IMG/VR virus record: IMGVR_UViG_2713896784_000011
DNA length: 17,524 nt
Origin: a virus
Lineage: Duplodnaviria > Heunggongvirae > Uroviricota > Caudoviricetes
Strand: one strand, 5' to 3'
This document shows, in pieces, positions 6,416 to 17,524 of this stretch (position 1 is its first letter; every line of letters begins with the position of its first letter). The translations under genes were made by a program, and so were the position numbers. Below the pieces are notes generated by a model. It ran no database searches, was not told the origin of the DNA, and saw only the letters and a list, made by a program, of their open reading frames with translations.

Positions 6416-6990
6416 CGGGTCAGCCATAACCTCAGTTGTTGTTTCAGTGCATACCCCAGCTGTTTCGGCATTTCCGCAGCAATGATGCGGTCGCGGGCAT
6501 CTTCAAATGCCTGTGTCAGCGGTCCGGACAGCGGGATTTTCACCACATCAATGGGGTAACGATTTTTGCCATCAATACGCCGCATCACATGCCAGCGACC
6601 ATTCGCCAGTTGCTGAATAAACGCATCCCGGAAAAGATATTTACCCACCTTCAGCACACTGCCACGGTACTGCAGTTTTCCACCACGCTGGGCCAGTCTG
6701 ACCCGGGCTGTCCCCAGCTTAATGGCGGGCAGATTGCCCCGGTTAACGCGGATCCTGGCCGTCATTTTTCCTGACGGACTGGCTTTAAACACCCGGACAC
6801 GCTGACGAACCAGTTTCAGGGGGATCCCTTTCACCTGGTTATCTCCCGCAACGGTATTCCCGGCAACCTGCCGGGTGGCAACCGAGCCCGCTTTCTGTGC
6901 CACACGGTTTATCGCCCATGCGCTGGCCTGTGGCACCATACGGGTATCAAGGCTGTTCAGATTGCGGATGGCATTCTCAAGCCCCTTCAT
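6412..6990 (-). CDS. Z: Tail completion protein Z
   Basis: 192-aa ORF MKGLENAIRNLNSL..., same size as lambda gpZ, with position and order conserved (between the FII-like gene and U). AGAGGTG lies upstream of the ATG. Confidence 0.8.
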   Translation of the reverse strand: MKGLENAIRNLNSLDTRMVPQASAWAINRVAQKAGSVATRQVAGNTVAGDNQVKGIPLKLVRQRVRVFKASPSGKMTARIRVNRGNLPAIKLGTARVRLAQRGGKLQYRGSVLKVGKYLFRDAFIQQLANGRWHVMRRIDGKNRYPIDVVKIPLSGPLTQAFEDARDRIIAAEMPKQLGYALKQQLRLWLTR

Positions 6991-7001
6991 CCCACACCTC
7001 T

Positions 7002-7277
7002 TTACTCAATAAAGATCATTGGCTTACCGTTAAAGCGTTCATGCCGTGTGACCGTCCATTGTTGTCCGTCATAAACAACGCGATCCCCGCGCCGTGGGCG
7101 GTATCCCGAAGAAAACACCACCAGAGAGACCGCAGGTCCGGACAGAGCATTCAGCTCTGCCAGTGTTTCTCCCGGGATCACAGTCATATCGACATCATTA
7201 ATCGAGGCTGTCTTTCCCATCTTTCTGACCGTGATAGCATCCATACGCGCTGCCAGCCGGGAAAAGGGATCAGACAT
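7002..7277 (-). CDS. Head-tail joining protein, gpFII-like
   Basis: 91-aa ORF with an RRGDRVVYDGQQWTV motif reminiscent of lambda FII (RRGDTLTIGEENFWV). Sits between the head genes and Z. Its start overlaps the stop of the upstream gene. Confidence 0.65.
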   Translation of the reverse strand: MSDPFSRLAARMDAITVRKMGKTASINDVDMTVIPGETLAELNALSGPAVSLVVFSSGYRPRRGDRVVYDGQQWTVTRHERFNGKPMIFIE

Positions 7278-7593
7278 TGAGTTTTACCGGCACTTCTTCT
7301 GCACTGGTTCCGGCATCTGCCCAGACAACCCCGACCAGCGGATCAGAGCCGCTGTTAGTCAGCTGAACTTTTCCTGACTTCAGATAAACCTTCTTACCCG
7401 TTTTCATGTCATCCGTTTTCAGCTTAGGCAGCATAAACACACCTTCGGTCATGCCGTCGCCTGTTTCACCCTGTGGAATATCGGTCAGCGCCACCGCAAA
7501 AACATCGCCCACCTGCACCAGATCTCCGCTGCTGATGGCTGCACTGGCAACAATCGCCACCGTTTTTCCTTCTTCTACAAAATTCTTTGCCAT
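7270..7593 (-). CDS. Small head-associated protein of unknown function (the family often mis-annotated RecA/RadA-like in Gifsy-type prophages)
   Basis: Likely start ATG 7591-7593 (MAKNFVEEGKTV), with GGAGA 7 nt upstream; the ORF-track N-terminus is an extension. Lies immediately downstream of the capsid gene. Confidence 0.65.
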   Translation of the reverse strand: MAKNFVEEGKTVAIVASAAISSGDLVQVGDVFAVALTDIPQGETGDGMTEGVFMLPKLKTDDMKTGKKVYLKSGKVQLTNSGSDPLVGVVWADAGTSAEEVPVKLNV

Positions 7594-7636
7594 AACTGTC
7601 TCCGCACAGCCCCGTTCAGGGGCTGATTTCAGGTAC

Positions 7637-7656
7637 AAAAAAAGCCCTTACGGGCC
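7637..7656 (-). terminator. Intrinsic terminator downstream of the capsid gene
   Basis: Minus strand reads GGCCC-GTAA-GGGC(T) followed by TTTTTTT: a short GC stem with a GNRA-type tetraloop, then a T7 run. Confidence 0.5.
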
Positions 7657-7679
7657 ATCAGAGTTGTTGTCTGCGACGT

Positions 7680-15972: not shown

Positions 15973-16023
15973 AAGGTTCCCGATGTGTGTTACATATCAT
16001 TTCTCCACGGGGAATATCCCCAC

Positions 16024-16073
16024 GCCAGCGCAGACTCTTTTACCCGTTCTCTTCTGCGCTGGCTCTTTTTTAT
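16024..16073 (+). terminator. Plus-strand hairpin plus T-tract (11-bp perfect inverted repeat)
   Basis: GCCAGCGCAGA (16024-16034) pairs perfectly with TCTGCGCTGGC (16053-16063) across an 18-nt loop, followed by TCTTTTTTAT. The long loop makes a protein-binding inverted repeat an alternative reading. Confidence 0.45.
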
Positions 16074-16252
16074 TATGCTGCTGCATTTACCTCTGGCACC
16101 ATGCTTTCTATCTCAACACAATACGTGGTACTTCTTGTAACCAATATCATAACGATTAATCGACATAGAATTTCTCCCGTGTACAGGAACAGAGTTAAAA
16201 AGCCGGAACCGGAATCAAATCACAGGATGACCATCTGCCAGTGGCAGGTCAT

Positions 16253-16279
16253 AAAAAAAAGGCCGCGCCATGCGCAGCC
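16253..16279 (-). terminator. Strong minus-strand intrinsic terminator
   Basis: Minus strand reads GGCTGCGC-ATG-GCGCGGCC followed by T8: an 8-bp GC-rich stem with one G-U pair. The plus-strand version has a C-A mismatch and no T-run, so it is strand-specific. Confidence 0.6.
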
Positions 16280-16465
16280 AGAACTCACAAGGAAAATGAT
16301 AGAAGGAAATAACATTAGTGATGTACGCATGGCGCCTCCCGCTAAGTTCTGCAATGATCAAACAGAACTCGCTACGTGCCCTTAAAACTCGATCATTTAG
16401 CCCCTCCAAGGAGGATTCACCATGCGGTTGATTTTTTAATAAACAGTAAACAAAAAAGTCAAGAA

Positions 16466-16576
16466 TTATTCATTCTGTTCTTTCATCATCGGCCACAGCA
16501 ATACCACAATGCCGCAGACCAGAGCGCCATCAGTCAGTACCAACATTATCCTGCTGGTGAAATCCATCATCACCAT
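16466..16576 (-). CDS. Hypothetical 36-aa hydrophobic peptide
   Basis: ATG 16574-16576 to TAA 16466-16468 translates to MVMMDFTSRIMLVLTDGALVCGIVVLLWPMMKEQNE: one predicted transmembrane helix and a charged tail. No convincing SD. Below the ORF-track size cutoff. Speculative. Confidence 0.2.
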   Translation of the reverse strand: MVMMDFTSRIMLVLTDGALVCGIVVLLWPMMKEQNE

Positions 16577-16709
16577 CACTAAAAGCAGGATCACAACAGC
16601 AAGCAGACACAGTTTATAAAACAATGTTCAGGAAACGCATTCAGCATGCCTAAGGTTCTATTCCTACGAATAGCCAACTTGCAACTTAAAATATTATTTA
16701 TGCAGCCAA

Positions 16710-17468
16710 TTAAATTCTGGTCCTTACAATATCAACCTGAAGATTCTTATCTTGTGCTGATTGATAAATGACAAACCTTTTACTACCTGCATTGAAAGAA
16801 GTAGACAAAACCAGACAATTATCATAACGAGCAAGAACATAATACCAACCATCATTATAATTAATCATTTCATATTCTTTCTTAAACTGTGGTTTGTAAT
16901 ATCCTGTCAGAAATGAAAAAAGCCAGAAATATGCCACAAAAGCAATCATCACAATCTCAAAAAAATGTTTTTTTATAAATGGCTTATCATAGAAGCATGA
17001 TACCGATAAAAATCGCCCATAAGATCTTATCGAAATTGTAACCGCCAGCGCAATCGCTGCTGACAGTAGCAAAAGAGGTACCTGAATCTTCTGTCTCAAT
17101 ATAGAAAACTCAATAATTGCCGGCACAAACAATAATTCCACAGCAAAATAAAGGCGAAATACATTTAGCTCTTGCATAGAATGTTTTCTTTTCACTGCGA
17201 AAAAGAATACAACACCAATACCCCAACCGATAAGAAATATAGCAATGACGATAACTGCAAAAAATAAACTTCTGGCAACATCATCAACACCTGCACCTAC
17301 AATCCACCATGGGAAGCCGTAGTAAAAAGAAGTACCCCATCCATAGAAATAAGCACTCCCCCATCCAAGGCATCCCATGTAGGCAATAAAAAGTGAAGAA
17401 CTCCTGAGCAGCGCACCATCCTTCATAACCACCCCAATACAAGATGATAACATTGGCTTACAACTCAT
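16710..17468 (-). CDS. Hypothetical polytopic inner-membrane protein encoded in AT-rich cargo DNA
   Basis: 252-aa ORF with about five hydrophobic helices and an approximately 60-aa hydrophilic C-terminal domain (KPQFKKEYEMINYNDGWYYVLARYDNCLVLSTSFNAGSKRFVIYQSAQDKNLQVDIVRTRI). Strongly AT-rich codon usage, unlike the flanking phage genes. The real start may be the internal ATG 17424-17426 (MKDGALL..., GGGGTGG upstream). I recognise no family. Confidence 0.6.
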   Translation of the reverse strand: MSCKPMLSSCIGVVMKDGALLRSSSLFIAYMGCLGWGSAYFYGWGTSFYYGFPWWIVGAGVDDVARSLFFAVIVIAIFLIGWGIGVVFFFAVKRKHSMQELNVFRLYFAVELLFVPAIIEFSILRQKIQVPLLLLSAAIALAVTISIRSYGRFLSVSCFYDKPFIKKHFFEIVMIAFVAYFWLFSFLTGYYKPQFKKEYEMINYNDGWYYVLARYDNCLVLSTSFNAGSKRFVIYQSAQDKNLQVDIVRTRI

Positions 17469-17524
17469 AACAAAAGCAATTCAATGCCGTCAAGAGGTTA
17501 CAGGCTAAAAAAACTCTATTACAT

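Follow-up and report, generated by a model that had tools for sequence, protein, structure and literature searches.

The window, meaning the whole 17,524-nucleotide stretch of DNA that was analysed, comes from a lambdoid prophage of E. coli O157:H7 and covers part of its late region, which runs on the minus strand. Many complete O157:H7 genomes match all 17.5 kb of it at 100%. In these window-identical genomes the prophage lies between ybhC and bioA and has nleB2 and nleC aboard; the site is presumably that of Sp3 / CP-933K on the Sakai and EDL933 prophage maps. The match to the O157 genomes is split in two pieces, with the genomes spanning 110 bp more, and the portal gene is annotated as two CDSs in one window-identical genome (locus L004; window ~10100–10250 against L004 16526–16648). 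The two-piece match and the split annotation suggest that the portal region has undergone an indel or a frameshift. A tRNA gene scan found no tRNA genes in the window.

The unit under study, assigned below to the small RNA gene pasD, extends from 16462 to 16253 on the minus strand. It is preceded by two cargo genes on the same strand: a membrane-protein gene (WP_001302581, ~16710–17453, from the ORF and annotation), for which there is no Pfam match, and a gene for a 52-residue small membrane protein of the DUF3927 family (16466–16624; PF13064, E = 3.4e-14), whose stop codon is 3 nt ahead of the pasD -35 hexamer. The initial annotation described the gene immediately upstream as a membrane protein and not an antiterminator. 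It is indeed no antiterminator, but the immediate neighbour is the DUF3927 gene, and the larger membrane-protein gene is further upstream. Just before this larger gene, at 17444–17473 on the minus strand, the sequence TTGTTA-18-TATCAT resembles a promoter and is preceded by a TG; a TTGACG is found a few bases further upstream. These elements suggest that the cargo genes own a promoter that is active in the lysogen and independent of PR'.

The first lysis gene downstream of pasD encodes a class II holin (15629–15844, minus strand; PF04971 and annotation). Between the holin gene and pasD lies a convergent, Esr41-like unit that resembles a small RNA gene (15969–16073, plus strand), recognised by a promoter-like site, its fold and a weak Rfam match. 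The promoter-like sequence CTGACT-18-GATAAT precedes it at 15932–15961 on the plus strand. The unit consists of two small hairpins followed by a long terminal hairpin and a U-run, with a fold of -37.7 kcal/mol (z = -5.5). The Esr41 match covers 15984–16073 and scores 32.3 bits, where the gathering score is 102. This part of the locus is also annotated by PGAP with a 132-residue "hypothetical protein", WP_012578864 (15987–16385, plus strand), recorded as antisense to both small RNA units and without a Pfam match above the cutoff. This annotation is probably spurious and, across hundreds of genomes, hides the RNA genes.

In locus L004, annotation places the LpxR gene at 6765–7724, the Q gene at 8199–8888 and the holin gene from 10681, with pasD at ~10063–10272. 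The Sp3 prophage and seven other Sakai prophages have been described as carrying Q, PR', a moron CDS, a convergent small RNA pair and a phage ORF (Tree et al. 2014, PMC4104026). The order around pasD here, namely Q, PR', cargo "moron" genes, small RNA pair and lysis genes, matches this layout, and the plus-strand unit that faces pasD fits the partner in the "convergent small RNA pair". More than 98% of PasD copies have Q and LpxR no further than 10 kb away, and a holin/lysozyme operon typically adjoins pasD1 (Zhu, Shabalina and Storz 2026 preprint). The same arrangement is found in L004, with Q and LpxR within 10 kb and the holin/lysozyme operon adjacent. A prophage with the nleB2/nleC effector genes that carries PasD is in line with the known picture.

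Identity with PasD1

The minus-strand unit ends in an intrinsic terminator (16253–16279), found by a terminator scan and by folding, which has an 8-bp GC-rich stem, a 3-nt loop and U8. Its letters, from 16279 to 16253, are GGCUGCGC-AUG-GCGCGGCC followed by U8. The terminator ranks first among the 38 terminator-like sites in the window and has a fold of -15.2 kcal/mol (z = -3.4).

From the -35 hexamer to beyond the terminator, the window is 100% identical to the PasD1 locus of prophage PP4 in EPEC E2348/69. PasD1 is a 173-nt RNA at NC_011601 1060260–1060432 (Pearl Mizrahi et al. 2021, PMC8550237), and these coordinates map onto window positions 16425 and 16253, so that the 173-nt PasD1-type RNA occupies 16253–16425 on the minus strand. 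As the locus is identical and the ends coincide, 16462–16253 can be assigned with high confidence to the pasD gene, in its PasD1 allele, which is EcOnc13 in EHEC, belongs to the STnc100 lineage and most likely has a sigma-70 promoter of its own. The initial annotation had predicted a self-contained, short minus-strand unit of ~170 nt that starts near 16430 and has a strong terminator 160–180 nt downstream. Both predictions agree with the 173-nt RNA (16425–16253) mapped in EPEC on identical DNA. The promoter-plus-terminator that had been spotted by eye is thus a genuine transcription unit and a real feature; its identity was published previously and it is not a new element.

PasD1 and PasD2 (172/173 nt) were validated by Northern blotting in EPEC, depend on Hfq and have RIL-seq targets; PasD is among the more abundant Hfq-bound accessory small RNAs there, and its targets include virulence genes (PMC8550237). 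The Northern probe target, CCTTGTGAGTTCTGGCTGCGCATG, has an exact match in the window. No 5'-triphosphate mapping of the pasD locus was found in the literature, and the 5' end is that given by RNA-seq coverage and Northern size. The published seed, UGUGAG (Pearl Mizrahi et al. 2021, fig. S5 and table S7), is present letter for letter at 16284–16289 on the minus strand, and is complementary to the CUCACA motif of the RIL-seq targets (PMC8550237). The terminator and its U8 tail are likely to be the 3' binding site for Hfq too.

The pasD1 element was found in 678 of 5,426 complete E. coli genomes, and pasD is also carried by the phages 434 and 2B8. Phage 434 has the PasD2 allele, from which the window has five differences. 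In PasD2 and phage 434 there is a G-to-A change in the 3' arm of the terminator, which replaces a U-G pair with U-A. For EHEC, Pearl Mizrahi et al. 2021 (PMC8550237) named EcOnc13 as the homologue of PasD, and the STnc100 copies of EDL933 are transcribed (PMC5331693). One of these, "STnc100_1" at 902,843, is ~10 kb into CP-933K, a position that fits its being the present copy.

Promoter and 5' domain of pasD

The TTGACT hexamer that the initial annotation had named as a -35 element is present at 16457–16462 on the minus strand. The AT-rich -10 needs a correction: TATTAA and TTAAAA both exist, but the best geometric fit is TAAAAA (16438–16433), which has an 18-bp spacer and is 7 nt ahead of the 5' end at G16425. 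This -10 is weak, with 4 of 6 matches and no T at position 6. Because of the missing T, a stringent consensus promoter scan of the window does not list the pasD promoter. The looser pattern TTGAC-N17-19-TAAAA has one match in the window, against 0.08 expected, and at least one match in 14 of 200 shuffles; from the window's letters alone, the promoter is therefore suggestive.

Support for the promoter comes from the wider family. Viral contigs were scanned with the 15-base motif GCATGGTGAATCCNCC, and 88 family members gathered from them gave 47 distinct upstream flanks for comparison. (In genome contigs, the matches listed for this motif were chance matches from unrelated phyla only.) A TA-type -10, that is TAAAAA, TAAAAG or TAGAAA, is located 5–7 nt before the G of GCAUGG in 43 of the 47 flanks. 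Among these 43, an extended -10 TG is also present in 31, while 42 have a -35 that matches at 4 or more of the 6 positions, with a spacer of 16–19 bp, mostly 18. PasD-type copies are without the extended -10 TG but have the near-consensus TTGACT. The genes upstream of these flanks differ while the geometry is kept, which argues for an autonomous pasD promoter. In addition, a figure of a study of Salmonella LT2 displays RpoD ChIP-exo data for STnc100 promoter regions (PMC10794520). The conserved promoter geometry is a modest addition to the published accounts of the PasD/STnc100 family.

A further feature was seen upstream of main-type STnc100 copies (in L007, L017, L021 and many other viral loci). 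Here, a strongly conserved box covers -60 to -25 and reads CTCACAATTCAG-N4-TTGAC(A/T)GTTG(T/C)CTG, extending past the promoter hexamers. This box is absent from PasD-type copies.

At gathering thresholds, Rfam has no matches in the window. In E-value mode, STnc100 (RF02076) matches 16455–16250 on the minus strand over model positions 1–206, with a score of 37.7 bits (E = 3.4e-6) that is below the gathering score of 47. A relationship between STnc100 and PasD of EPEC E2348/69 has also been stated by the Storz laboratory (Zhu, Shabalina and Storz 2026 preprint).

The first 99 nt of the RNA form a structured 5' domain (16327–16425, minus strand), as judged from folding and covariation. The minimum-free-energy fold of the 173-nt RNA, for which z is only -2.1, begins with this domain, closed by helix P1 (16425–16418 with 16334–16327, RNA positions 1–8 with 92–99), and continues with an unpaired seed region and the terminator. 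The RNA 5' end is the first base of P1 in all family members. An alignment of 49 distinct cores showed that the core fold of P1, P2 and P4 is common to PasD and STnc100. Hairpin P4 (16370–16363 with 16351–16344) is backed by covariation: there are 13 stem variants among these cores, with pairing kept in all.

The segment that follows hairpin P2 is predicted to pair with the loop of P4, which in the window would join 16397–16388 with 16362–16353. Among 47 distinct cores the pairing recurs with unrelated sequences, in four classes or more: AUCAGC/GCUGAU, CUGGUG/CACCGG, UAAUGAC/GUCAUUG and, in PasD, AAUGAUCGAG/UUUGAUCAUU. It was scored by duplex detection in each sequence, as MAFFT column scoring is unsuited to loops that differ in length. 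Pairs of at least 6 bp were reached by 97% of cognate combinations, compared with 30% in a loose non-cognate control, in which related loops of different length were counted as separate classes. Covariation thus supports a pseudoknot in the 5' domain. The literature found on PasD/STnc100, including the preprint of Zhu, Shabalina and Storz 2026, makes no mention of a pseudoknot or promoter. What is added here, the promoter geometry and a 5' domain with a pseudoknot, is modest and could help in designing mutants of PasD and STnc100.

The GGGAGG hairpin of STnc100 (CCGGGAGGCACCCGG) is not intact in the PasD type. Here, GCGGGAGGC is followed directly by the 3' strand of P1, GCCAUGC, which amounts to a 7-nt deletion. 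Tandem STnc100 copies ~470 nt apart were seen in seven viral contigs (L012, L021, L022, L031, L044, L078 and L089), with cores of differing pseudoknot classes.

The 99-nt 5' domain is far more conserved than the seed and terminator modules at the 3' end, which are interchangeable, and pasD/STnc100 keeps its site downstream of Q genes from no fewer than two unrelated families (PF06323 and PF03589). An additional role, in which the 5' domain is more than a small RNA scaffold and acts as a functional RNA module of lambdoid late operons, fixed between the cargo slot and the lysis genes, is a tentative and rather unlikely proposal. If so, it could possibly bind a protein or the polymerase, or be a stability or processing element that affects late read-through or lysis gene expression.

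Q, the late promoter and other readings

The initial annotation noted that there is no Q gene adjacent to the unit. This is true within the window. In window-identical genomes, a 229-residue antiterminator ends 113 bp past window position 17524, so Q appeared to be missing because the window was cut 113 bp short of its gene. The protein belongs to family PF06323 (E = 1e-91) and is called "Q82-like" in the phage 434 record. It has no sequence relative among solved structures.

A candidate late promoter module for this Q82-like protein is located outside the window, at L004 8860–8965, as judged from conserved elements and folding. Overlapping and following the 3' end of Q are TTGCAA-N17-TATACT, the sequence TGgTATGTT and a hairpin with a U-run, the terminator reading AAACCCGCUGCCGAGUGGG plus its U-run. 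TGgTATGTT resembles an extended -10 element, of the type responsible for sigma-70-dependent pausing. The promoter, the pause-like element and the terminator are all kept in five diverged loci with the same type of Q; the terminator stems differ between loci and the hairpin is still formed. A terminator is annotated at the same site in phage 434. By sequence, this module is the probable true late promoter. Prophage PP4 of E2348/69 has a lambda-type Q (PF03589), and directly after it a lambda-like TTGACT-N17-GAAACT; its homology with the O157 locus picks up again at the terminator. From the Q stop codon (L004 8888) to the pasD -35 (L004 10063) there are 1,174 bp with two cargo genes between, and no TAnnnT pause element is present in +1 to +26 of pasD (GCATGGTGAATCCTCCTTGGAGGGGC). 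In the viral contigs examined, family members are separated from Q by 565 nt or more, or follow cargo genes, for example stx2AB or a DNA methylase gene.

These findings bear on how the unit had been read at the outset, as a possible pR'-tR' late leader, the target of a Q that has itself been displaced or lost. Known leaders of this kind are lambda 6S RNA and StxS. The lambda pR' -35 is TTGACT, the same as that of pasD, and lambda 6S RNA is 194 nt, close to the ~173 nt of the present unit. Such transcripts can be Hfq small RNAs as well, StxS being the true pR'-tR' small RNA of Stx phages (PMC7547250). Q, however, is present 113 bp outside the window, and it is directly followed by its own promoter, pause-like element and terminator, conserved in the five diverged loci. 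The initial annotation had called for a search for a Q homologue upstream, a sigma-70 pause element and a Q-binding site, and had said that a Q gene and late promoter further upstream, with transcription passing through the region, would refute its reading. The Q homologue was found there, with the Q-proximal promoter on the sequence side; the pause-like element is with that promoter, and pasD has no TAnnnT in +1 to +25. The pasD -35 is ~1.17 kb past the Q stop behind two genes, and other family members are likewise distant from Q or downstream of cargo. Moreover, the same pasD module is found behind two unrelated types of Q, the PF03589 type having its own lambda-like pR'. The late-leader reading is therefore rejected and has almost no remaining probability. 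Its counterpart, that the element is the terminator of the cargo gene, is partly right. The pasD terminator very probably ends cargo-gene transcripts as well, as a secondary role of an independent, conserved small RNA gene; since the terminator is shared, processed cargo transcripts could contribute to the 173-nt RNA. The stronger form, in which the element is only a terminator and 3' UTR of the cargo operon and the RNA is processed from it with no promoter of its own, is improbable. Many Hfq small RNAs are derived from 3' UTRs, the pasD -35 begins 3 nt after the DUF3927 stop, and the pasD terminator is the first strong one past the cargo genes. The EPEC authors also drew PasD2 as 3' UTR-associated with its upstream gene (PMC8550237). 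Against this, in 43 of 47 flanks the promoter geometry keeps its register with the RNA 5' end, behind genes as different as stx2B, a DNA methylase, TerB-like proteins and DUF3927, and that 5' end coincides with the first base of P1 throughout the family. The sequence at 16425 (CAACC/GCAUGG) appears unlike an AU-rich RNase E site, and RpoD ChIP-exo data are displayed for Salmonella STnc100 promoter regions (PMC10794520).

A coding function, with the element specifying a small membrane protein or lipoprotein, is also extremely unlikely. An ATG at 16330 has GGGAGG, a strong Shine-Dalgarno-like sequence, 4 nt before it, and the encoded peptide, MRTSLMLFPSIIFLVSSGC..., resembles a signal peptide with a lipobox-like SSGC. 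The phage 434 record has a CDS over a 62-residue ORF with a TTG start, and some EDL933 STnc100 copies have ribosome footprints (PMC5331693). None of these frames is conserved, however: PasD1 is separated from PasD2/phage 434 by a 1-nt indel that leaves no overlapping ORF in the same frame, the last ~30 residues of the TTG ORF are in different frames in the two alleles, and the ATG ORF ends after 14 codons in PasD2. The terminator is inside the ORF, leaving the 173-nt RNA with no stop codon. The STnc100 consensus lacks the ATG itself, and its GGGAGG forms the conserved loop of a hairpin. The TTG ORF, the ATG ORF and the PGAP plus-strand ORF (15987–16385) were all rejected, as there is no conserved frame. 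The phage 434 record (L245, OL657226) shows a CDS for a "putative membrane protein" at 2554–2742, where the PasD2 allele lies, and places a terminator inside it.

Proposed working and related systems

With pasD as an autonomous small RNA gene, transcription would most likely start at G16425 from the sigma-70 promoter TTGACT-N18-TAAAAA, G16425 being the presumed primary start in this strain, and would end at 16253 at the intrinsic terminator, to give the 173-nt RNA. The first 99 nt would form the conserved, pseudoknotted domain closed by P1. The 3' third would hold the single-stranded seed UGUGAG, the terminator hairpin and the U8 tail. A seed followed by a terminator hairpin and a U tail is the usual architecture of Hfq-binding small RNAs. 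In the lysogen, the RNA would base-pair in trans, with the help of Hfq, with mRNAs of the host and of virulence genes, as shown for the identical EPEC sequence. The unit has a fixed slot in the late regions of lambdoid phages, in which Q, PR'/tR' and the cargo genes are followed by pasD/STnc100 facing an opposite-strand small RNA, and then by the lysis cassette. After induction, Q-modified RNA polymerase arriving from PR', outside the window, would have to read through the pasD terminator on its way to the holin gene.

The closest known system is PasD1 of E2348/69, which has the same 173 nt, promoter, downstream flank, seed, terminator and gene neighbourhood, with no difference at the sequence level. 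The setting differs in that the host here is O157:H7 and the prophage is inserted at ybhC-bioA. In addition, the Q beside pasD is of the PF06323 (Q82-like) family, as in PP2 of E2348/69, whereas PasD1's own prophage, PP4, has the lambda-type Q (PF03589). EcOnc13 is an Hfq-bound RNA of O157:H7 Sakai (PMC4104026), and its equivalence to the window copy rests on the cited statement of homology. Its position is alike: downstream of PR', between cargo and lysis genes, it is the sense-strand partner in a convergent pair of small RNAs.

STnc100 (RF02076), from Salmonella and E. coli prophages, shares with PasD the helices P1, P2 and P4, the loop pseudoknot and the promoter geometry. It also occupies the same genomic slot, for example 75–104 nt after stx2B. 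PasD differs from STnc100 in the 7-nt deletion, which takes the 3' half of the GGGAGG hairpin, in a shortened P2, and in a 3' seed region and terminator of another type. For the plus-strand unit, the likeness to Esr41 is confined to the central hairpin and the terminator. Lambda 6S RNA and StxS resemble pasD in being short, terminated transcripts of the lambdoid late region that are constitutive in lysogens, and StxS binds Hfq. They start, however, at a Q-dependent promoter directly after Q, with a Q-binding site and a sigma-70 pause element, whereas pasD has no pause element and is separated from the upstream Q by ~1.17 kb and two genes.
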